DNA of 64,000 nucleotides. Source: an uncultured Bacilli bacterium. Its GTDB lineage: Bacteria > Bacillota_I > Bacilli_A > RF39 > UBA660. The notes under the pieces were generated by a model that ran no database searches, had not been told where the DNA came from, and worked only from the letters and a program-made list of their open reading frames with translations. Made by a program: the position numbers and the translations under genes. Location: NCBI GenBank assembly GCA_947585665.1, contig CANPXE010000008.1, positions 11,294 to 75,293 on the forward strand, read 5' to 3'. Below are positions 47,360 through 63,334 of the stretch, in pieces. The first letter of the stretch is position 1, and every line of letters starts with the position of its first letter.

Positions 47360-48757
47360 TTGAAAAATATAAAAGAGTTATATGATACGGAATATGACTT
47401 TTTAGTTAAAGATATAAAGACTTCTTCTAAAGATATTGAAAAAGGTGATTTATTCGTTTGTATAAAAGGTGTTGTTGATCGTCACGATTTTATCCAAGAA
47501 GCTATTGAAAAAGGGTGTAGTGGTCTCATTGTTGAAAGAGGAAATAATTATCCTGTTCCTTTTATTAAGGTGAAGAATACTAATGAAGAGCTAGGACGCA
47601 TTTCAAAGAAATTTTATGATTACCAAAATACTCTAAAAATAATAGGAGTGACAGGAACTGATGGTAAGACAACGACATCTCTAATAATTAGAGATATGTT
47701 AGAAAGTTGTGGTTATATTGGAACAAATGGTGTTAAGAGCAATAAGATTAATTTAAATACGCAAAATACGACTCCAGAATTAAATCTAATTTATAAATAT
47801 TTAAAGATGTTTGAAGAAGAAGGTCTAAAGTATTCCAGTATGGAAGTATCAAGTGAAGGCCTTTTACACAATCGTGTTAAAGGTATTAAGTATGATATTG
47901 GGATATTAACTAATATTAGTGAAGATCATTTAAATGTCCATAAGACCCTTTCTAATTATATTAATACTAAAATAAAGATGTTTAAAAACATAAAAAAAGA
48001 AGGATATGCAGTTCTTAACCGTGATGACCGTTTCTATGATAAATTCTTAGAAAACTGTCAATGTCATACTTTTAGTTATGGATATGATGAAAAAAGTGAT
48101 TTGATTCTAAAAAAAGTCACTTTAAAAGAAGAAAATTCGCTTGTTTTGATAGAGTATAAGAAGAAAGAATACGAGATATTGTCTTCGTTAAAAGGCGAAT
48201 ACAATGCCTATAATCTTTTAGCGGGAATTGGCGCATTACTCTGTTTAGGTTTTGACATCGAAGATATTATAAAAAGAGTAAATAATATTAAACAAGTTAT
48301 GGGTCGTTGTGAAATAATTAATGTTGGAGATTTTAAAGTTGTATTAGACTATGCCCATACAGCTAATGGTTTAAAAAGTATTTTGAGTTATTTAGAAAAA
48401 ATTAAAAAAGGAAAGATAATTACTGTTACAGGTAGTGCAGGAGGACGCGAACGAGAAAAACGCAAAGAAATGGGAAGAGTTGTTCAAGAAAAGTCGGATT
48501 TAGTTATTTATACAATGGATGACCCTAGATTCGAAAGAGTTATTGATATCATTAATGAAATGAAGAATCCTGAAAAAAATAATTATTTAATTATTGAGAA
48601 CAGGAAAGATGCGATTGCCAAAGCATTGGAAATTGCTAGAAAAGATGATTTAGTTTTAGTTGCTGGTAAAGGACGAGATAACTACATGGCGATTGAAGAT
48701 AAGTATGTTAAATATTCAGATTATGACACAATAATGTCTTTACTTTCTAAGAATTAA
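47360..48757 (+). CDS. murE: UDP-MurNAc-L-Ala-D-Glu:diamino-acid ligase MurE
   Basis: The TTG start follows AGGTGAAG. GVTGTDGKTTT is present, and DDPR occupies the position of the DNPR motif, which suggests meso-DAP specificity. Confidence 0.88.
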   Translation: MKNIKELYDTEYDFLVKDIKTSSKDIEKGDLFVCIKGVVDRHDFIQEAIEKGCSGLIVERGNNYPVPFIKVKNTNEELGRISKKFYDYQNTLKIIGVTGTDGKTTTSLIIRDMLESCGYIGTNGVKSNKINLNTQNTTPELNLIYKYLKMFEEEGLKYSSMEVSSEGLLHNRVKGIKYDIGILTNISEDHLNVHKTLSNYINTKIKMFKNIKKEGYAVLNRDDRFYDKFLENCQCHTFSYGYDEKSDLILKKVTLKEENSLVLIEYKKKEYEILSSLKGEYNAYNLLAGIGALLCLGFDIEDIIKRVNNIKQVMGRCEIINVGDFKVVLDYAHTANGLKSILSYLEKIKKGKIITVTGSAGGREREKRKEMGRVVQEKSDLVIYTMDDPRFERVIDIINEMKNPEKNNYLIIENRKDAIAKALEIARKDDLVLVAGKGRDNYMAIEDKYVKYSDYDTIMSLLSKN

Positions 48758-52268: not shown

Positions 52269-53657
52269 ATGAATAAGAAACTTATCAAAATATTGATTGG
52301 TATAGGTTGCTTTGTCATTGTTATTGTAGTTGGTAGTATTTTCTTTTTTAAGAATTTAATATCTTTAAAAGGTGATGAAGTTGTTCAAGTTGCCTTAAAT
52401 AGTAACTATGAAGAAAAGGGTGCAAAAACTAATTTTATAGATGATGATAATATTAAGATAACGGGTGAAGTTAACAACAAGAAAGTTGGAACTTATAAGA
52501 TAAAATATGAAGTTAAATTTTTAGGAATTAAAGTTGATAAGTATCGTACTGTTGAAGTAGTTGATCGTGAAGCTCCGGAATTGACCTTAAAAGGTGGCGA
52601 AACAGTTAATGTTTGTGGGGATGCTAAATACGAAGAAGAAGGTTATACTGCAACTGATGCTTATGATGGTGATTTAACCGATAAAGTTAAAATTGAAGAA
52701 AAAGATAACATTATCTTTTACACTGTTGAAGATAAGAGTGGTAATAAGACAACCGTTCGTAGATACATAAATCGTGATGATAAAGAAGCCCCTAAACTCA
52801 CATTAGTTGGTAGTGAAACTGATTCGGTTGTATTAAATTCTAAATATAGTGATCCAGGATACAAAGTTAGTGATAATTGTAGTGAAAAAGTTGATGTTAA
52901 AGTCGAAGGAAAAGTTGATACCAGTAAAGTTGGAAGTTATACTTTAACATATACGGCAACGGATGGTGTTGGTAATACGACAACCGTTAAAAGATATGTT
53001 AAGGTAACCAATAATACTAATAAATGTGTCATCTATTTAACTTTTGATGATGGACCATCTAAAACATCAACACCAAAGATCTTGGAAATATTAAAAAAGA
53101 AAAATGTTAAAGCAACATTCTTTGTCATAAATCATAGTTCTAGTCTAGATTATTTGATTAAACAAGAATACAATGAAGGACATACGGTGGCACTACACAG
53201 TTATACGCATAATTATAAAACTGTTTATTCTTCTAAAACAGCTTTCTATAACGATTTAGAAAAAATTCAAGATAAAGTTGAAAAACTAACAGGCGTTAAA
53301 CAAATGATTACCCGTTTCCCTGGTGGTAGTAGTAATACTGTTAGTAGAAATTATCAAAAAGGAATTATGAGTGAGTTAACAAAAGAGATGAAAGAAAAAG
53401 GATATCACTATTTTGACTGGAATGTTAGTAGTGGTGATGCTGGTGGTGCTAAAACAAGTAATGATGTCTATAAAAATGTTACAAAAGGTATAAGTACTAA
53501 ACGAAGTAATAATGTTGTCCTAATGCATGACTTTGAAAATAATAATAAAACAGTAAATGCTTTAGAGCGAATTATTGACTATGGACTTGCAAAAGGATGT
53601 AGATTTGATAAAATAGATATGACAACACCAATGGTTACACACGGAGTAAACAATTAA
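52269..53657 (+). CDS. membrane-anchored polysaccharide deacetylase (NodB) with two Ig-like (DUF5011-type) repeats
   Basis: There are two EAP(E/K)LTL.G....V repeats, then the NodB motifs LTFDDGPS and HSYTH. Confidence 0.85.
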   Translation: MNKKLIKILIGIGCFVIVIVVGSIFFFKNLISLKGDEVVQVALNSNYEEKGAKTNFIDDDNIKITGEVNNKKVGTYKIKYEVKFLGIKVDKYRTVEVVDREAPELTLKGGETVNVCGDAKYEEEGYTATDAYDGDLTDKVKIEEKDNIIFYTVEDKSGNKTTVRRYINRDDKEAPKLTLVGSETDSVVLNSKYSDPGYKVSDNCSEKVDVKVEGKVDTSKVGSYTLTYTATDGVGNTTTVKRYVKVTNNTNKCVIYLTFDDGPSKTSTPKILEILKKKNVKATFFVINHSSSLDYLIKQEYNEGHTVALHSYTHNYKTVYSSKTAFYNDLEKIQDKVEKLTGVKQMITRFPGGSSNTVSRNYQKGIMSELTKEMKEKGYHYFDWNVSSGDAGGAKTSNDVYKNVTKGISTKRSNNVVLMHDFENNNKTVNALERIIDYGLAKGCRFDKIDMTTPMVTHGVNN

Positions 53658-53667
53658 GGAGTAATTT

Positions 53668-55347
53668 ATGAAAAAGAATAATGGAATAAAATTATGGGGT
53701 TTATTAATTAGTTTATTAGCATTTCTTTTAATTCCTATGAATATTTATGCTGAGGGCAATGATAAAGTTGTAGTAAGTGGTGATAGTACAGTTGCAGCAG
53801 GAGCAAAAAATGTAAAATATACTGTAACTTTTACTCCTGATACAGCTAATGCTGATAAAAATTGGACTAAATTTAAAGCTGATGTAAGTTATAGTAGTTC
53901 AATTTTAAAGTTTGAATCAGTTGAAGTAGGAAAAGGATGGAGCGGAATTAAAAAAGATAATGGGATTGAACTTAGTGTTTCTGATGGTACTGCTGCTACT
54001 GGGAATATAGTTGCTACATTAGTATTTAGTGTTTTAGATAGTCCTAAAACAAAAAATGATACTATAACATTAAAAAATGTAATGGTTTCTTATTCTAATG
54101 AAGTAGAAGAAAGTCCAGATACATCATTAAGCATTTCTAAGGTAACAGGTCAATCAATTCGTTTAAAAGAAACTGATAATACTTTAAAAAGTTTAAAAGT
54201 TAATGGAACAGCTGTTGATGGCTTTAAGTCAGATACATTTGAATACGATGTAAATGTTGAATCTTCTGTAAGTACTGCTAAAATAGTTGCGACAGTCAAT
54301 GAAAGCCATGCTAAATTAAAAGATGGTAGTGGTAATCGTACTGTCAATTTAGATTATGGTAGTAATACTATTAAAGTAATAGTTGTTAGTGAAAGTGGTA
54401 AAGAACAAACTTATACTTTAAATGTTACAAGAGAAGATACACGTAGTACGGATGCCACTTTATCTAGTATTACAGTTGATGGTGAACCAATTGAAAATTT
54501 TAGTAGTACAACTTATAAATATGCTTTAAAGAAATATAAACTTACGGCATTGGCTAAAGTTGATGCTAAAACGACTGATGAAAAAGCAAAATTTGTTGTA
54601 ACACCACCTAAATCTTTAGTTGTTGGTGAAAATACTTATACAATTACTGTTACATCTGAAAAAGGTGATACATCTATTTATACAGTTGTTGTTAACAATG
54701 TTGAGAATGCTATTAATAAAAAGTTAAAGACTTTATCTGTTAAAGGATATGATATCAACTTTGATTGTAATAATAATCGTTATGAGATTCGTTATAACAA
54801 AAGTAAATTTAAAAAATTACATATTTATTACACGACGATGGGCGCAAGTGATGAAGTTGTCGCAACACTTTCACCTGATATCAATAATGATGAAGAAGCT
54901 CTTAAAGATTTAACAGTCGGTGATGAAATAACAATAACAGTAACTGGTATTGATGGTGAAAAAGTTGAATACACTATTGTTGTTGTCAAAGATAATCGTA
55001 TCAGTTTCTTCCTCGTTTTAGAGATTTTCTTAATCATTGTTATCGCCGGTGTCATCATTGTTCTTGTCATTAAAAGAAAAAAAGATAATGAACAAAAGAG
55101 TAAAAGAAAACCTAGTAATTATAAGACAACTAAGGTAGCTAAAAAAGAAGAAAAAGAACCAGAAGAAGAAAGAGAAGAGACTACTCCAAGAAGAAGATCA
55201 AGAAGTGCTGTCGAGATAGTTGAAAGTGATCGCCCTAAACGTCGTCGTTTCTCAATTTATGAAGATGAATATGAAGAGGTTGAAGTAGAAGTTGATGATG
55301 AAGACGAAGATGACGACCTTTCTTCAACAAAAGAGTTCCGTCGTTAA
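53668..55347 (+). CDS. surface protein: cohesin-like domain plus cadherin-like beta-sandwich repeats, C-terminal TM and charged tail
   Basis: After the signal peptide, at least three repeats have the pattern LKSLKVNG...F..DTFEYDVNV / LSSITVDGEPIENFSSTTYKY / LKTLSVKGYDINF. A TM (FFLVLEIFLIIVIAGVIIVLVI) is followed by a K/R/E/D-rich ~90-aa tail. Confidence 0.7.
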   Translation: MKKNNGIKLWGLLISLLAFLLIPMNIYAEGNDKVVVSGDSTVAAGAKNVKYTVTFTPDTANADKNWTKFKADVSYSSSILKFESVEVGKGWSGIKKDNGIELSVSDGTAATGNIVATLVFSVLDSPKTKNDTITLKNVMVSYSNEVEESPDTSLSISKVTGQSIRLKETDNTLKSLKVNGTAVDGFKSDTFEYDVNVESSVSTAKIVATVNESHAKLKDGSGNRTVNLDYGSNTIKVIVVSESGKEQTYTLNVTREDTRSTDATLSSITVDGEPIENFSSTTYKYALKKYKLTALAKVDAKTTDEKAKFVVTPPKSLVVGENTYTITVTSEKGDTSIYTVVVNNVENAINKKLKTLSVKGYDINFDCNNNRYEIRYNKSKFKKLHIYYTTMGASDEVVATLSPDINNDEEALKDLTVGDEITITVTGIDGEKVEYTIVVVKDNRISFFLVLEIFLIIVIAGVIIVLVIKRKKDNEQKSKRKPSNYKTTKVAKKEEKEPEEEREETTPRRRSRSAVEIVESDRPKRRRFSIYEDEYEEVEVEVDDEDEDDDLSSTKEFRR

Positions 55348-55360
55348 ATATTAAATAAAA

Positions 55361-55393
55361 TTAGAAATAAACAGGTGTTTATTTCTAATTTTT
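55361..55393 (+). terminator. rho-independent terminator
   Basis: The 12-bp stem TTAGAAATAAAC-AGGT-GTTTATTTCTAA is followed by TTTTT. The tracked GTG start at 55375 lies inside this stem. Confidence 0.75.
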
Positions 55394-55407
55394 CTAAGGA
55401 GATTTTT

Positions 55408-55926
55408 ATGAAAAAATTAATTCCTAATAGTTATTATAAAAGTATTTATGATATTGATTATGATAAGTTAAAGAAGATGGGTATTAAATGTCTAATGTTT
55501 GATTTAGATAATACGCTTGCTTTAATCGATGAGGGTGTTCCACCTGAAAAAGTCTTAAAATTGATTAAAAAGCTGAATAAAAATTTTGATACTTATATTC
55601 TTTCTAATAATACTCATGAACGCATTTCTAAGTTTTGTGAACCTTTCGCAGCAGAATTTGTTTCTTTTGCTTTAAAACCTCTTTCGCGTGGTTTCAAAAA
55701 AATAGCTGAAAAGAAAAAGTATCAACATGCTGAGATGTGCGTCATAGGGGATCAATTGATGACAGATGTTCTTGGCGGAAATCGTTTTGGGTGTTATACT
55801 ATATTGGTCGATCCCCTTAGTGAAAAAGATTTGAAATGGACGACATTGAACCGCTTTGTAGAAAATCTTTGTTTGAAAAGACTAAAGAAAAAGCAGATTT
55901 TAGAAAGAGGCAAATATTATGAGTGA
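55408..55926 (+). CDS. yqeG: YqeG-family HAD phosphatase
   Basis: The HAD motif I MFDLDNTL is present. The ATG follows TAAGGAG. The synteny with yqeH matches B. subtilis. Confidence 0.8.
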   Translation: MKKLIPNSYYKSIYDIDYDKLKKMGIKCLMFDLDNTLALIDEGVPPEKVLKLIKKLNKNFDTYILSNNTHERISKFCEPFAAEFVSFALKPLSRGFKKIAEKKKYQHAEMCVIGDQLMTDVLGGNRFGCYTILVDPLSEKDLKWTTLNRFVENLCLKRLKKKQILERGKYYE

Positions 55927-56923
55927 TAAATTCTGTATTGGTTGTGGTATCAAATTACAAGATGAAAATATCAGTCAATTAGGATATACTACTAATCTTG
56001 AAAATGATATATGTAGTCGTTGTTTTAGAATGAAAAATTATGGTGAATATCAAATTGTTACTAATTCTAATGATGATTATATAAATATTTTAAAAGAAGT
56101 TAATAAGAAAAAAGATTTAGTTCTATACATAGTTGATTGTCTAAATTTTGGAGAAGATATCGCAAGTATTAGAAAATATCTTTCTAATAAAATGCTTTTA
56201 GTTTTGAATAAGCGTGACGTTTTGCCTAAAAGTGTTAAAGATGAAAAGATAATTTCTTATATTAAAAATTTGAATTGTGATTTTGAAGATATCATAGTAG
56301 TAAGTGCTTTAAAAAATTATAATATTGATCTTTTAATGCAGAAGATAGATAAGTACAAAACGAGTAAAAATGTTTATGTCGTTGGTAATACTAATGTTGG
56401 TAAGAGTAGTTTGATTAATAAAATCATTAAGAATTATTCCGAACAAGAAGGTGCCTTGACGATATCACCACTTCCTTCAACAACCTTAAATAAAATAAGT
56501 ATAAAGTTGAATGAAAAATTAACTTTAATAGATACTCCAGGATTAGTCAATCGTGGAAACTTAATTAATTATATAGGAAATGACTTAGTTAAAAAAGTTA
56601 ATCCACGCAAAGAAATTAAACCTAAAACTTATCAAATTAGAAATAATCAATGTTTAGTTATTGGTGATTTATTCAGAATTGATTATTTAGAAGGGGAAAA
56701 GAATAGTTTTACTGTTTTTTGTTCAAATGATATTAAAGTAAAGCGTTATAATCGTCAAAAATGTGAACTATTAAAGAATCTTTCCCAAAAGAGTTTTGAT
56801 GTTTCTTATCATCAAGATTTAGTTGTTGATGGCTTAGGATTTATAAAAATAGTATCTAAGGCCAAAGTCGATGTTTATGTCGATATAAATGTTAGTGTTT
56901 TTATACGAGATTCAATAATCTAA
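55919..56923 (+). CDS. yqeH: ribosome-biogenesis GTPase YqeH
   Basis: The N-terminal zinc finger is CIGCG...CSRCF. The G domain is circularly permuted, with LNKRD before GNTNVGKSSLIN. Confidence 0.88.
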   Translation: MSDKFCIGCGIKLQDENISQLGYTTNLENDICSRCFRMKNYGEYQIVTNSNDDYINILKEVNKKKDLVLYIVDCLNFGEDIASIRKYLSNKMLLVLNKRDVLPKSVKDEKIISYIKNLNCDFEDIIVVSALKNYNIDLLMQKIDKYKTSKNVYVVGNTNVGKSSLINKIIKNYSEQEGALTISPLPSTTLNKISIKLNEKLTLIDTPGLVNRGNLINYIGNDLVKKVNPRKEIKPKTYQIRNNQCLVIGDLFRIDYLEGEKNSFTVFCSNDIKVKRYNRQKCELLKNLSQKSFDVSYHQDLVVDGLGFIKIVSKAKVDVYVDINVSVFIRDSII

Positions 56924-56997: not shown

Positions 56998-57717
56998 ATG
57001 AGAATAACTGTTAAAGATACCGAAGTGAATTACATACAATATGGTAAGGGAAAAGATATCATTTTACTTCATGGTTGGGGACAAAATATTGAAATGATGA
57101 AACCTTTAGGTGATAAGTTAGAGGACAAATATCGCATAACTATCATTGATTTCCCGGGTTTCGGTGATAGTCCAGAGCCAAAAGAAGTCTTTAAAGTAGA
57201 AGATTATTGTGAAGTTGTAGAAGAACTTGTCAAAGCTTTAAAGATAAAAAAACCAACTTTGGTTGGTCATTCTTTTGGTGGACGCGTCAGTATAATGTTT
57301 GCTTCGCATAATGAAGTCGATAAATTGATTCTTTTTGGTAGTCCTTGCTTTCATAAAGAGGAAAAGTCTTTAAAATTACAAGCTCTTAGAACTTTGAAAA
57401 AAGTTCCTGGAATTAATAAACTAGAGGGCTTTGCGAAAAAACATATTGGAAGTCGTGATTATAAAAATGCGAGTGAAATGATGCGTAAAATATTAGTTGA
57501 AGTAATCAATGAAGACTTAGAGGAATATGCAAAAAGAATAAAATGTCCAACCCTTCTCATGTGGGGTGATAATGATTTAGAAGTTTCCGTTGAAGATGCC
57601 CGTAAGATGGAAAAGATTATTGATGATGCGGCTTTGATTGTTTTTCCTAATTCTAGTCATTATGCTTATTTAGAAAATTTAAATCAAGTTGTTAAGATAA
57701 TTAAAGAATTTGTTTAG
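56998..57717 (+). CDS. alpha/beta-fold hydrolase
   Basis: HGWG, the nucleophile elbow GHSFGG and a C-terminal SSHY are present. The start is ATG 56998 or 56986. Confidence 0.8.
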   Translation: MRITVKDTEVNYIQYGKGKDIILLHGWGQNIEMMKPLGDKLEDKYRITIIDFPGFGDSPEPKEVFKVEDYCEVVEELVKALKIKKPTLVGHSFGGRVSIMFASHNEVDKLILFGSPCFHKEEKSLKLQALRTLKKVPGINKLEGFAKKHIGSRDYKNASEMMRKILVEVINEDLEEYAKRIKCPTLLMWGDNDLEVSVEDARKMEKIIDDAALIVFPNSSHYAYLENLNQVVKIIKEFV

Positions 57718-57734
57718 ATAAAATGGAGGTAATT

Positions 57735-59372
57735 ATGGAAGAGTTATTAATGAATGTATCACTATTTGGAGCTTATGTTGTCATGGCTTGTATCTTTGTT
57801 TATTCTCTTTATAAATCAAAGAGAAGTTTACAAATGGCCCAACAAAACCTTTATAATGAGAATAATCGTTATTTGAAATGGGTTAAGAAGAATCGTAAAG
57901 AAATATTTACTAATATTGATATTTATGGAATGTTGTTGACTTTTGGTCTTGCTTGGTCATTTACGACATATGTTTCTTTTTACTTTATTATCTTGATTTT
58001 AGCCTTATATGTTGTTGCGACAATCTTTTATAAGAAAGCTCGTCAAAAAGATCAAAATAAAAAACCATTAGTTTTTACAGGACGTATTAAAAGATTATTT
58101 ACAACTGATTTTATCTTATATCTATTAGTATGTTTATGGGGAATCTTTGTTAAAGCACATTTATGTGATGCTATTTTCATTTTATCAATTATGGCGGTAT
58201 TAAATTACTATGTTGTTTATGTTGCTTTGTTAATAAATAAACCAATCGAAAAATTAATTTATCGTCATTATGAGAAAAACGCAAAAAAAAAATTAAAAAA
58301 TCTCGCTAATCTCAAAGTCATTGGTATAACAGGAAGCTATGGAAAGACTAGCTGTAAGAATGTTTTAGCTGATGTTTTAAGTTCTAAATACAATACCTTA
58401 GCTACTCCTAAAAGTCTAAATACTTTTAATGGTTTAATGATTACTGTCAATAATGATTTAACTAAATTTGATGATTGTTTTATTGCTGAAATGGGGGCTT
58501 ATGTTAAAGGAGAAATAAATGGTTTATGCGATTTAGTTAATCCTAAATATGGAATTATCACGAGTATTGGAACAGCACATTTGGAAACATTTGGAAGTGA
58601 AGAAAATATCATTGAAGGTAAAATGGAATTGATTGAACACTTACCAAAAGATGGTGTGGGAATATTAAATCGTGATGATGTAAAGCAAAAAAATTATAAA
58701 ATAAAGAAGAAAGATCATTGTAAAATTCTTTGGATTGGAATTGATACTAAAGACGAAGTTGATGTTCTAGCATCCAAAATAAAATGTAGTAATGAAGGAA
58801 CAAGTTTTGAATGTCATTTTAAAGGTGATAAGAAAAAATATTCCTTTACGACTAAACTTCTTGGTAAACACAATGTTTATAACATCATTTCAGCTTTAGC
58901 ACTTGGTAAAGAATTTGGTATTGAAATTGAAAAGATGCAACAAGCGGTAAAGAAGATTAAACCTGTTGAGCATCGTCTCGAAATAAAGAACTTTAATACT
59001 TTTTATCAATTAGATGATGCATATAACTCTAATCCAGTGGGTGCCAAATCAGCACTAGACGTTCTTGATATGATGGATGGTATGAAAGTAGTTGTTACGC
59101 CAGGAATGGTTGAATTAGGTGAAAAAGAAGAATATTACAACAAAGAATTTGGTAAACAAATAGCTAAGGTTGCTGATAAAGTTATTCTTGTTGGTAAAAA
59201 GAAAACAAAACCAATTTTAGAAGGCTTGAAAGAGGAAAAATATAGTGAAAAGAACATTGAAATAATTAATGATGTTCGTGAAGCATATCAATTATTAAAT
59301 AAGATTAATTCAAAGAAAAAAGTTTATGCACTTTTTGAAAATGATTTACCTGATACATATAATGAAAAGTAG
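57735..59372 (+). CDS. murF: MurF-type Mur ligase (UDP-MurNAc-tripeptide:D-Ala-D-Ala ligase core) with polytopic membrane N-terminal domain
   Basis: The core motifs are IGITGSYGKTSCK, AEMGAYVKGEI, SIGTAHLETFGS, HRLE and DDAYNSNP. The first ~190 aa hold 4-5 hydrophobic helices instead of the usual soluble N-domain. The ATG at 57735 lies 6 nt after GGAGG. Confidence 0.75.
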   Translation: MEELLMNVSLFGAYVVMACIFVYSLYKSKRSLQMAQQNLYNENNRYLKWVKKNRKEIFTNIDIYGMLLTFGLAWSFTTYVSFYFIILILALYVVATIFYKKARQKDQNKKPLVFTGRIKRLFTTDFILYLLVCLWGIFVKAHLCDAIFILSIMAVLNYYVVYVALLINKPIEKLIYRHYEKNAKKKLKNLANLKVIGITGSYGKTSCKNVLADVLSSKYNTLATPKSLNTFNGLMITVNNDLTKFDDCFIAEMGAYVKGEINGLCDLVNPKYGIITSIGTAHLETFGSEENIIEGKMELIEHLPKDGVGILNRDDVKQKNYKIKKKDHCKILWIGIDTKDEVDVLASKIKCSNEGTSFECHFKGDKKKYSFTTKLLGKHNVYNIISALALGKEFGIEIEKMQQAVKKIKPVEHRLEIKNFNTFYQLDDAYNSNPVGAKSALDVLDMMDGMKVVVTPGMVELGEKEEYYNKEFGKQIAKVADKVILVGKKKTKPILEGLKEEKYSEKNIEIINDVREAYQLLNKINSKKKVYALFENDLPDTYNEK

Positions 59373-60816
59373 GAGATGACTAACTATAATAAGTCAAGTC
59401 ATTTTTTCTCAAAAATCTTTGTAAGATTTTTGTTCCACGCAAAAAGATTTTAAAAATATTGATTTTTAAAATTTTATGTCGCGGTATATATAATATAAAT
59501 TAAACACCAATTAATTTATATTTGATTTAAAAGTAATATTTTCAGATTCTAATTTATAAATAATTCTGACAAGTTTTTTAGCAATATGCGTTAAAGCAAC
59601 TCTGTGAGTTTTACCTTCGGAACGTTTTTTATAATAGAATTCTGTGAATATAGGTTCATGCATAAAAACATAGTCTGCGGCATTCATAAGAAAATATCTT
59701 AAATGACTAGATCCATGTTTAACCATGTGACCAGTGTGAGATTCAGTTCCGGACTCTGATATACTAGGCTCAATACCAGCAAAAGCAACACAAGCATCAG
59801 CTGATTTAAATCTAGATAAATCACCAAATTCGGAAATGATTCCAGCACAAGAAATAATACCAATTCCTTTAATGGATAGAGTTGGTGGATTAAGTTCTTT
59901 GATAATAGACTCAATTTTATCTTCAAGTTTATTAATTTCAACTTCAATTTGAGAATGAAGAACAAGTAAAGATTCTAATTCAGTTTCAAAAATATCATTT
60001 GAAATACCGATAGAATTTTTAGCAAGTTCTTTAAGTTTAATAAAATTAGCAGAAGTGAATTTACCATGAGAAACTTTTTTAATTGAATCAAAATCTTTCA
60101 TATTTTTGATTTTATCTGGAGTTTTATATTTATTTAAAATATATAAAGCGGTTTTAGAAAAATCATTATTAAAGAAAGGTTTAAATTCAGGGAAAATAAT
60201 ATCTAAGGTATTAGTAATTTGAACTTCATAATAAGAACGTTGTTTAACTAACTTTTCTCTCATTCTAGATAGAGACTTTAATGAATATTTATGGTAAAAT
60301 TGTTTCGGATGGGGTTTGTAATCTACAGATATAAGATACTTAGTGATTAACATGGCATCTTTCTTATCTGTTTTAGTTCTTCTAAGAGTTTGAGTTGAAA
60401 TAAATCTTTTAACAAGAGCAGGATTAAATTCCATAAAAGAATAATTGTTCTTTTCAAGGAAAAGCTTAAGGTTCATCCCATAATGACCAGTAGCTTCAAA
60501 TCCTATCCTTATTTCTTGACTATTATCTAAAGATTTTAATAAATTAAGTAATTGAATAAATCCTTCATTGGTGTTTGTGAAAGATAAATTTTCTTCAATT
60601 ACTTCACCTGTTTCAGAACAAATGAAACAGTCATGTTTGTATTTTGAAATATCAATACCAACAAAATACATAAAAAAAACACCTCCAATTAGTTTTTAAT
60701 GCACTGCATGTTTTACACAAGACTTCTATTTATGTATTCACGTAGGATATAAAACGTCAAAGCGTTAACTAACTAATTACCAATAAAAATAAAAGCCTGT
60801 GGTAGTTGTCATCTCC
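59372..60816 (-). mobile_element. IS110-family insertion sequence (about 1.45 kb)
   Basis: The element has a single DEDD-type transposase ORF flanked by non-coding ends of about 140 nt each. The boundaries are proposed from the imperfect inverted repeat GGAGATGAC(T)AACTA at 59372..59386 and 60803..60816. The exact ends are uncertain. Confidence 0.7.
59511..60671 (-). CDS. IS110-family transposase/recombinase
   Basis: MYFVGIDISKYKHD is the start of the DEDD RuvC-like domain. The C-terminal Transposase_20-like region includes SIKGIGIISCAGIISEFGD. The SD is GGAGGTG. Confidence 0.9.
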   Translation of the reverse strand: MYFVGIDISKYKHDCFICSETGEVIEENLSFTNTNEGFIQLLNLLKSLDNSQEIRIGFEATGHYGMNLKLFLEKNNYSFMEFNPALVKRFISTQTLRRTKTDKKDAMLITKYLISVDYKPHPKQFYHKYSLKSLSRMREKLVKQRSYYEVQITNTLDIIFPEFKPFFNNDFSKTALYILNKYKTPDKIKNMKDFDSIKKVSHGKFTSANFIKLKELAKNSIGISNDIFETELESLLVLHSQIEVEINKLEDKIESIIKELNPPTLSIKGIGIISCAGIISEFGDLSRFKSADACVAFAGIEPSISESGTESHTGHMVKHGSSHLRYFLMNAADYVFMHEPIFTEFYYKKRSEGKTHRVALTHIAKKLVRIIYKLESENITFKSNIN

Positions 60817-60965
60817 AACCAGTCAAAGCCGTAATAAAATAGAAACAAATCCACAGTGCTTAAATATTATATCTCGTTTCAGATGTAATAAAAAAATATT
60901 ATAGAAAGGAGAATCTAATATAGTGATTAATAAAAAAATCACATAATTAGATTATACGTGATTAA

Positions 60966-62162: not shown

Positions 62163-62197
62163 AAACAATATTATTCATTCACAGGGGGTGAAAAGTA

Positions 62198-63334
62198 TTG
62201 GACAATCATTTTGAAGAAGATTTGGATAGTTTAAGTGATGAAGCACTTAAATATATAGGTGTTACTAATCTCGACTTTCGAACCCATCTATCACAAGATG
62301 AACTTGACGAAGTTCAAAAGATGCTCTTTTCCATTAATACCTTACTTCAAATAACCTTTAAAGATGGAACGGAAGTTATAGATATTGAAAACTTAAAACA
62401 TCTATTAGAACTTTCACCAATGTGTGATGATCGTAAAGTTGAAAAAATGATTCTTCGTCATAATTCAAAAGAAGAAGTAAAAAAAATTTTAATGATGCCT
62501 TACGATAATCCTGATACATGGAAGATTGCTTATGACATTAAAGATGAAACATATCTAATAACGACAATCCCCAATTATCGTTTAATTGAAGAATATATTA
62601 GTATTGTTTTATCTTGTATAAAGAGTGATATGAGTCCTTTAGAAAAAATAAAAGAAGTATATGATTTTGTAAAATTATTAGAGTATGATAAAAAAAGTAG
62701 TAGTCGTCTTCCTGATATAGTTAGAACTCGTAAAACAAATAATTTTGGTTATAGTGTTCTTTTTACGAAGTTGTTGGAAAGACTTGATATTAAATCTTTC
62801 GTTGGCGAAGTTGAACGCGAAGGAGAAAAAGAATATTTAACTTTAATTTCTATTAAAGATGAAAAATATGATGTTGATGGTATATATGCTTTTGATCCAG
62901 CAAGTGATTCCATTCCTAAAGGACTTTATAAAAGTGATGCCATTAGGAAAATTAATTACAACTTTTTTGCATTACCTGTAAAAAAAATAGTTGATACACT
63001 TGATGATAGTAAACTAATTGGAACGATGTCATTAATTACATCTTCATCATTTGATTATTTTAATCGTCATTTAGACAGTAGTGATAAAGATACTTTAGAA
63101 AAGACATTTGATGATAATATTGAAAATATTTATCAACGTCTTCAAAAAACAAAAGTTATTCCAGATGACAAAGTTATTTCTTTATGTCTTGATACTATTC
63201 ATCAAGAAGACTTTCTTGGCTTAAGTAATAATGTCAATAATTTATTATCTAATAATTATCATTTACGAAAAAAAGAAATATTTTGTGAAGAAGAATCTAA
63301 AGAATTACAAACAGTAAATATTCATGATGTATAA
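62198..63334 (+). CDS. hypothetical protein, degenerate paralogue of the 13651..15492 transglutaminase-like protein
   Basis: The TTG start follows GGGGGTGA. The segment KTNNFGYSVLFTKLLERLDIKSF...YLTLISIKDEKYDVDGIYAFD aligns with the Cys-His-Asp core of the 613-aa protein, but the Cys and His are replaced. Confidence 0.6.
   Translation: MDNHFEEDLDSLSDEALKYIGVTNLDFRTHLSQDELDEVQKMLFSINTLLQITFKDGTEVIDIENLKHLLELSPMCDDRKVEKMILRHNSKEEVKKILMMPYDNPDTWKIAYDIKDETYLITTIPNYRLIEEYISIVLSCIKSDMSPLEKIKEVYDFVKLLEYDKKSSSRLPDIVRTRKTNNFGYSVLFTKLLERLDIKSFVGEVEREGEKEYLTLISIKDEKYDVDGIYAFDPASDSIPKGLYKSDAIRKINYNFFALPVKKIVDTLDDSKLIGTMSLITSSSFDYFNRHLDSSDKDTLEKTFDDNIENIYQRLQKTKVIPDDKVISLCLDTIHQEDFLGLSNNVNNLLSNNYHLRKKEIFCEEESKELQTVNIHDV

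Follow-up and report, generated by a model that had tools for sequence, protein, structure and literature searches.

Mur ligases are known from the textbooks as soluble cytoplasmic enzymes and as antibiotic targets. The canonical MurF (TIGR01143; structures 1gg4, 3zl8, 4cvm and 4qf5) is a cytosolic enzyme whose soluble domain 1, of ~80–100 residues, binds uridine diphosphate (UDP), and it is here that the protein considered below departs from it. The protein, which we call TM-MurF, is encoded in a 64,000-nucleotide stretch of DNA from an uncultured Bacilli bacterium of the RF39 lineage (GenBank assembly GCA_947585665.1, contig CANPXE010000008.1, positions 11,294 to 75,293 of the forward strand), the whole of which is referred to as the window. 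It shares with canonical MurF the central and C-terminal domains and the catalytic residues, and canonical MurF is its best match both by profile and by fold; the likeness extends to a linkage with ddl, the gene for D-alanine–D-alanine ligase, and, in Poribacteria, to a position between murE and mraY. In place of domain 1, however, TM-MurF has a domain of ~170 residues that is predicted to cross the membrane five times and that carries invariant cytoplasmic motifs of its own, and whereas canonical MurF is cytosolic, TM-MurF is predicted to be membrane-integral and is co-conserved with an alpha/beta-hydrolase.

MurT, too, belongs to the Mur-ligase family, has no domain 1 and uses a lipid-linked substrate at the membrane, but it does so without transmembrane (TM) helices, which of the two only TM-MurF possesses; MurT has in addition a DUF1727-type C-terminal domain and an obligatory partner, GatD. 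No gatD lies near TM-MurF in the window, where the neighbours are the hydrolase and ddl. PgsB/CapB proteins offer a different kind of likeness, with a Mur-ligase-type ATP-binding domain on an N-terminal hydrophobic membrane tether. PgsB is anchored once, has PgsC and PgsA as partners and makes polymers of glutamate; both proteins are membrane-tethered, but the gene neighbours of TM-MurF are of another kind and no PgsB/CapB model is among its 25 NCBIfam matches. Natural fusions of Mur enzymes (MurE–MurF, MurC–Ddl, MurD–FtsW) support the view that Mur ligases are arranged side by side and near the membrane steps of the pathway, and in the survey of these chimeras no MurF with a TM domain of its own is mentioned, “transmembrane” occurring 0 times (PMC10214165). 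Unlike TM-MurF, such fusions join complete enzymes.

TM-MurF is the closest relative of MurF. When it is compared with the MurF, CapB/PgsB and cyanophycin synthetase families, MurF is the best match and the others are unmatched or fall far under cutoff, and its ligase part is, by sequence, closer to MurF than to MurC, MurD, MurE, Mpl, MurT, CphA or FolC. In NCBIfam the murF model TIGR01143 scores 238.3 bits, with the next-best types, murC at 83, murE at 81 and murD at 67, far behind; the cyanophycin synthetase model NF010623 reaches 25 bits against a cutoff of 877, and the MurT models NF045635 and NF052464 reach 20.3 and 16.5 bits against cutoffs of 800 each. The seven best sequence matches in the PDB are all MurF (entries including 1gg4, 4ziy/4qdi, 3zl8 and 4cvk), the nearest solved sequences being those of E. 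coli, A. baumannii, T. maritima, P. aeruginosa and S. pneumoniae, and their alignments begin at query residue ~190, which equals residue 99 of the E. coli enzyme. The top 10 Foldseek matches are again all MurF (E = 1e-25 to 1e-19 over ~370 aligned columns). The central domain holds the P-loop GITGSYGKTS, E252 and K296, the last of these aligned to K202 of E. coli MurF (1gg4), and in 125 family members the P-loop, E252, H282, K296, R414 and DDxYNxNP each reach at least 95% conservation. An earlier note on this DNA, made from the letters alone, had picked out GITGSYGKTS, AEMG, GTAHLE, HRLE and DDAYNSNP as MurF motifs; all are present, and all are near-invariant in the family.

The same note had described a continuous reading frame with a good Shine–Dalgarno sequence, in which the N-terminal MurF domain is replaced by a membrane domain of 4–5 TM helices, and both descriptions hold up. 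The open frame spans 57723..59372 on the forward strand, with a TAG stop at 59370–59372, and encodes 545 residues without interruption from the ATG at 57735 (Table 1), which is likely the start, since GGAGG stands 4 nt ahead of it and the closest homologue (P0001) begins MEELLMN, as does TM-MurF from this ATG. Ahead of residue 168, hydropathy reveals strongly hydrophobic segments, and a Pfam scan of residues 1–190 finds neither PF01225 nor any other credible match. The absence of a canonical N-domain extends to the family, as 47 of 47 diverse members contain Mur_ligase_M and Mur_ligase_C and 0 of 47 contain PF01225.

The AlphaFold2 (AF2) model of TM-MurF, built on a 47-sequence alignment, has a mean predicted local distance difference test (pLDDT) score of 91.3 and a predicted TM-score (pTM) of 0.83. 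Its N-terminal part is all-helical (helices 2–37, 39–52, 62–74, 81–105, 116–138, 140–155 and 157–189); the membrane-domain helices have pLDDT values of 84–97, and the N-domain modelled alone reaches 92.1. Taken together, the two models give a bundle of helices 2–37, 60–75, 82–104, 116–138 and 140–155/157–189. Across the 125 family members, lysine and arginine are concentrated in the loop 26–59, the loop 105–116 and the start of TM4, and their median count is 0 in the loops 76–81 and 139–144. Together with the AF2 helices, this charge pattern gives the predicted topology, which is five TM helices, an external N-terminus and a cytoplasmic ligase. A crude hydropathy peak counter returned 3–9 peaks across family members and was set aside; the AF2 helices and the charge distribution were used in its place. 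When the membrane domain was compared with the PDB, no relative was found by sequence or, in Foldseek, by fold (best E = 1.7, TM-score ~0.3), and no Pfam or NCBIfam model covering the domain was found.

Conservation in this domain is unevenly spread. Against the window protein, family members show a median identity of 25% across the N-domain and 45% across the ligase, and the TM helices themselves are variable. Q36 and Y40 are nevertheless 100% conserved in the 125 sequences, and Q36, Y40, R117, R120, P170, E172 and A183 are invariant even in the profile-derived divergent sets (A2 and A3), in which at least 90% of sequences keep K109/K110; T115 does not vary in the divergent N-domain set and is kept by at least 90% of the full-length set, and the linker residues P170, E172 and A183 are 98–100% conserved. 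For motif 2 the 125-sequence figures are biased, the loci having been retrieved by motif 2 itself, and A2 and A3 are relied on instead. In the AF2 model, motif 1 occupies the end of the long helix 2–37 on the cytoplasmic side and the turn that follows, just after TM1, the KKPLVxTxRxKRL of motif 2 lies at the cytoplasmic start of TM4, and INxPxE opens the linker helix. This last helix is continuous with TM5 (AF2 helix 157–189, unbroken) and runs to the P-loop strand, the first of the ligase domain, which is where the TIGR01143 match begins, at profile position 64. That a few cytoplasmic positions are invariant while the TM helices vary indicates that the predicted membrane domain has a function beyond anchoring. 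The (S/T)-D-(S/T)-R loop found in domain 1 of canonical MurE and MurF could have left a trace in T115-x-R117.

The opposite end of the protein also carries a family-specific sequence, FENDLPDxY, within which E535–D540 are at least 95% conserved in the 125 sequences; AF2 gives residues 538–545 a pLDDT below 50. It stands where E. coli MurF presumably ends in a strand and helix containing ...KGSR..., and could serve to dock a partner protein.

The architecture recurs widely. In a 90%-clustered protein collection, at least 120 clusters at 61–95% identity cover 93–100% of TM-MurF, with lengths of 510–546 residues, and one of them carries the source name MurF. Among 1.84 billion representatives, a profile built on the N-domain alone matches 1006 clusters, 332 of them at E ≤ 1e-10; all full-length matches are proteins of 511–559 residues with the domain at residues 1–185, and the remainder are fragments. 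At the genome level, at least 120 loci were retrieved with a back-translated DNA pattern for KKPLVxTxRxKRL. Among the matches listed, the carriers in Clostridia are Ruminococcus, Oscillospiraceae, Acutalibacteraceae, Christensenellales, Limiplasma, Lachnospiraceae, Tissierellia (including [Clostridium] ultunense DSM 10521) and Peptococcaceae; uncultured Bacilli, “Tenericutes” and Erysipelotrichaceae are represented as well, and other phyla contribute Poribacteria, Balneolaceae, Rhodothermales, Anaerolineae, Limnocylindrales and Ancillula, to which an additional search added Kordiimonas, Rickettsiales, Zetaproteobacteria and Methylobacter. The Balneolaceae proteins have a longer N-terminal extension (ORFs of 598–630 residues). 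The gene is also present in complete genomes, among them OZ006981.1, OY781471.1 of Tissierellales and Poribacteria chromosomes such as OZ250160.1. A family of this size with one architecture removes any reading of TM-MurF as unique to this organism; judged from these sequences, it is a widespread MurF subfamily and the usual form in many gut Clostridia, Bacilli and sponge Poribacteria. The earlier note had allowed that the architecture might turn out to be the ordinary MurF of the clade, and so it has: what falls away is the oddity of this genome, and what stands is the departure from the textbook MurF, which holds family-wide and of which no description was found.

Genomic context is the strongest functional evidence for TM-MurF. 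Context was examined at 114 TM-ligase loci, and in 89 of the 100 that were testable the ligase shares its strand with a ddl homologue, which directly follows it where gene order was listed; a homologue of the window alpha/beta-hydrolase lies directly upstream in 79 of 92 testable loci, across phyla. At 28 Poribacteria loci, with flanks of 10 kb, the three genes are embedded in the division and cell wall (dcw) cluster in the order rsmH-ftsL-ftsI-murE-[hydrolase-TMmurF-ddl]-mraY-murD-ftsW-murG-murC. Since murE precedes the module and mraY follows it, and the dcw cluster of these 28 loci holds no canonical murF, the TM form fills the murF slot in Poribacteria. In Ancillula the ligase is again found just upstream of mraY; at one further locus (L101) the neighbouring gene matched mraY at 49 bits only, may encode another GT4 enzyme, and was excluded from the dcw linkage.

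In the window itself, the hydrolase has a GHSFGG nucleophile elbow and an intact Ser-Asp-His triad; no curated family was found for it, the best NCBIfam match, to the EstV family lipase, reaching 139 bits against a cutoff of 300. The window Ddl lies above the curated cutoffs of NF002528 (316 against 262) and TIGR01205 (275 against 245.65), and does not pass those of the Van-type D-Ala–D-Lac or D-Ala–D-Ser ligases. As the earlier note had remarked, the window holds no second murF: the only other Mur ligase is a MurE of the meso-diaminopimelate (mDAP) type at 47402..48754. From this MurE, the MreC/D-region genes that the window also holds, and the valid Ddl, it follows that the organism makes peptidoglycan.

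We put the probability at about 0.72 that TM-MurF is the membrane-anchored housekeeping MurF of this bacterium, adding D-Ala-D-Ala to UDP-N-acetylmuramic acid (UDP-MurNAc)-tripeptide. The earlier note had left open two readings, a membrane-tethered MurF and a ligase with a different, possibly lipid-linked, acceptor, and it is the first that the murF profile, the fold, the ddl linkage and the murE–mraY position in Poribacteria better support. The central and C-terminal domains, of ordinary MurF type, would face the cytoplasm, the soluble domain 1 having been swapped for a five-helix bundle that a single rigid helix would join to the ligase. A replacement site for the nucleotide-diphosphate end may then be formed by Q36, Y40 and W49 after TM1, by K109, K110, T115, R117 and R120 at the membrane face of TM4, and by P170 and E172 in the linker; glutamine, asparagine and tyrosine would suit uracil, and threonine, arginine and lysine at the membrane face would suit the diphosphate. 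The invariant residues of the cytoplasmic loops probably take over substrate binding in this way. Anchoring would put the last soluble step beside MraY, with UDP-MurNAc-pentapeptide made at the membrane, and the Ddl encoded next to the ligase would supply the dipeptide.

Several observations weigh against this assignment. The TIGR01143 match covers profile positions 64–392 only and its score lies under the curated cutoff of 288.6, the shortfall being due to the unmatched positions 1–63, and the domain that binds UDP in the solved MurF structures is absent; on these two counts, the curated cutoff and the presence of domain 1, TM-MurF departs from MurF. In Kordiimonas (L158) and Rickettsiales (L160) the module lies away from dcw genes, and in Balneolaceae (L048/L050, and Gracilimonas, L072) the ligase is alone, with no hydrolase or ddl neighbour and unrelated genes around it. 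In these three groups the TM-ligase may be an acquired extra copy, and its occurrence outside Bacillota and Poribacteria suggests horizontal spread, perhaps with a second, non-housekeeping role. For mapping the start of TM-MurF, a search for RNA-seq data returned DNA metagenome runs only, from rabbit and other guts.

The absence of the UDP-binding domain 1 from every tested member also invites a different account, in which D-Ala-D-Ala is added to undecaprenyl-PP-MurNAc-tripeptide (the tripeptide form of lipid I/II), the membrane domain binding a polyprenyl-diphosphate where domain 1 binds UDP, and MraY transferring a tripeptide precursor first. The most conserved basic residues (K109, K110, R117, K119 and R120) lie at the membrane–cytoplasm boundary, where they would suit a diphosphate head group, and MurT, a Mur-ligase homologue likewise without domain 1, provides a precedent in that it acts on lipid II; the adjacency of mraY in Poribacteria and Ancillula is compatible with either order of steps. 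The ligase domains are nevertheless nearest to MurF, with the MurT models at 16–20 bits against cutoffs of 800, and the QQNxY of motif 1 lies ~10 residues past the membrane boundary at the end of a helix, where its side chains would fit a uracil nucleotide equally well. Moreover, the pathway is universally conserved, which makes a reordering unlikely a priori, and MraY and MurG would need to use tripeptide substrates efficiently. We regard a lipid-linked acceptor as unlikely, and the same doubt attaches to its consequence, namely that binding of undecaprenyl-diphosphate by the membrane domain would let the pentapeptide stem be completed on lipid I/II and so invert the textbook order in a large part of the Clostridia, in RF39-like Bacilli and in Poribacteria. 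Were it so, the alpha/beta-hydrolase might be a lipid- or ester-directed accessory enzyme.

It is less probable still that TM-MurF is an accessory paralogue, part of a portable module of hydrolase, TM-ligase and Ddl that serves another acceptor or a back-up or resistance route, with a canonical murF elsewhere in the genome. The sporadic appearance of the three-gene module outside Bacillota (Kordiimonas, Rickettsiales, Zetaproteobacteria, Methylobacter, Anaerolineae and Limnocylindrales) does suggest horizontal transfer, the Kordiimonas, Rickettsiales and Balneolaceae loci described above fit such a role, and the hydrolase partner is without an assigned role. Set against this are the replacement of murF by the module within the dcw cluster of the 28 Poribacteria loci; the partner Ddl, which by its cutoffs is a D-Ala–D-Ala ligase and not a Van-type enzyme; and the 161 loci, with flanks of up to 10 kb, among which no MurF-type gene other than the family member was found, as judged by length and alignment span. 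Two sets of MurF and Ddl would also be unexpected in the reduced lineage of uncultured Bacilli to which the window belongs, a lineage of the rabbit gut in which a relative has a circular chromosome of 1.31 Mb. Finally, a small membrane protein and a truncated murF might have been read as one ORF, or an internal start might yield a soluble ligase and leave the TM region as a separate product. That is scarcely credible: the frame is uninterrupted, the identical fusion is found in more than 100 independent assemblies from several phyla, the AF2 helix 157–189 passes from TM5 into the ligase across the supposed junction without a break, and no in-frame methionine with a Shine–Dalgarno sequence lies between the last TM helix and the P-loop. 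A housekeeping MurF anchored in the membrane remains our preferred reading of the locus, the coordinates of which are collected in Table 1.

Table 1. Features of the TM-MurF locus, in window coordinates; domain limits and functions are predictions from the sources given in the last column.
Feature	Position	Strand	Basis
TM-MurF, membrane-embedded MurF-type ligase, 545 aa	57735..59372	+	Single uninterrupted ORF; Pfam, NCBIfam, AF2, Foldseek
Shine–Dalgarno GGAGG	57726..57730	+	Read from sequence; 4 nt before ATG 57735
N-terminal membrane domain, residues 1–167, five TM helices, in place of MurF domain 1	57735..58235	+	Hydropathy, AF2, K/R pattern
Cytoplasmic motif 1, residues 33–49, (H/Q)MxQQNxYxxxxRYxxW	57831..57881	+	Alignments A1, A2, A3; AF2
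Cytoplasmic motif 2, residues 106–121, DQNKKPLVxTxRxKRL, loop 3 and TM4 start	58050..58097	+	Sets A2, A3
Linker helix, residues 168–192, INxPxE...AKxKL	58236..58310	+	AF2 helix 157–189; conservation
Mur ligase central (ATP-binding) domain, residues 198–390	58326..58904	+	PF08245 (Mur_ligase_M), E = 2.5e-39
Mur ligase C-terminal domain, residues 413–526, with HRLE and DDAYNSNP	58971..59312	+	PF02875 (Mur_ligase_C), E = 1.4e-10
Family-specific C-terminal tail FENDLPDxY, residues 534–542	59334..59360	+	Conservation in 125 sequences
Alpha/beta-fold hydrolase, 239 aa from ATG 56998	56998..57717	+	Pfam Abhydrolase_1/6, Hydrolase_4
D-alanine–D-alanine ligase (ddl), 398 aa	60966..62162	+	Pfam Dala_Dala_lig_N, Dala_Dala_lig_C
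Insertion of ~1.58 kb with IS110-family transposase (ORF 59511..60671)	59380..60959	-	Pfam DEDD_Tnp_IS110, Transposase_20; borders approximate

The junction between murF and ddl has been altered in this genome. In two relatives (L002 and L005) the Shine–Dalgarno sequence of ddl overlaps the stop codon of murF (...TAGGAGATGATTTAAATG) and the gap between the genes is 3–16 bp. In the window an IS110 insertion, inferred by comparing the junction with L002, L005 and L001, splits the two genes and cuts ddl (60966) off from its Shine–Dalgarno sequence. L001, a 95%-identical contig from a metagenome-assembled genome, has the same left junction and ends within the IS110 element, of which the window holds one copy. 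Directly 3' of ddl, an ORF of 380 residues (62192..63331) has no Pfam or NCBIfam match and is found at the same position in close relatives (L002–L006). Ahead of the module (55375..56923) lie genes for a YqeG-like HAD phosphatase and a YqeH-like GTPase, an order kept in related Bacilli loci (L001–L006 and L075) and not in Clostridia or Poribacteria. Farther upstream (52269..55347) are two surface proteins, one with immunoglobulin-like repeats and a polysaccharide deacetylase domain, which could be a peptidoglycan deacetylase, and one with a cadherin-like domain, a C-terminal TM segment and a highly charged tail.

A literature search for transmembrane or membrane-bound MurF, or for MurF in Poribacteria, found no description, most subscription journals lying outside its scope; the TM-MurF subfamily, with its new membrane domain and its conserved hydrolase partner, is thus one for which no prior description was found. 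Published reconstructions of RF39, RFN20 and ML615J-28 give an mDAP-type pathway “with steps missing” (PMC10868615). As TM-MurF scores under the curated murF cutoff, annotation pipelines may call MurF missing, and sub-threshold proteins of this kind could be overlooked in such reconstructions, which bears on cell-wall predictions made from genomes.

The findings define a conserved hydrolase-murF-ddl module, of which cultured carriers exist ([Clostridium] ultunense DSM 10521 and Mediannikovella massiliensis), and they point to MurF as an integral membrane protein in many abundant gut anaerobes and in Poribacteria, with a confidently modelled fold that has no solved relative. Overall, they bear on how substrate recognition may be rebuilt once a UDP-binding domain has been lost, and on the long-debated membrane-proximal assembly of Mur enzymes that would feed MraY.

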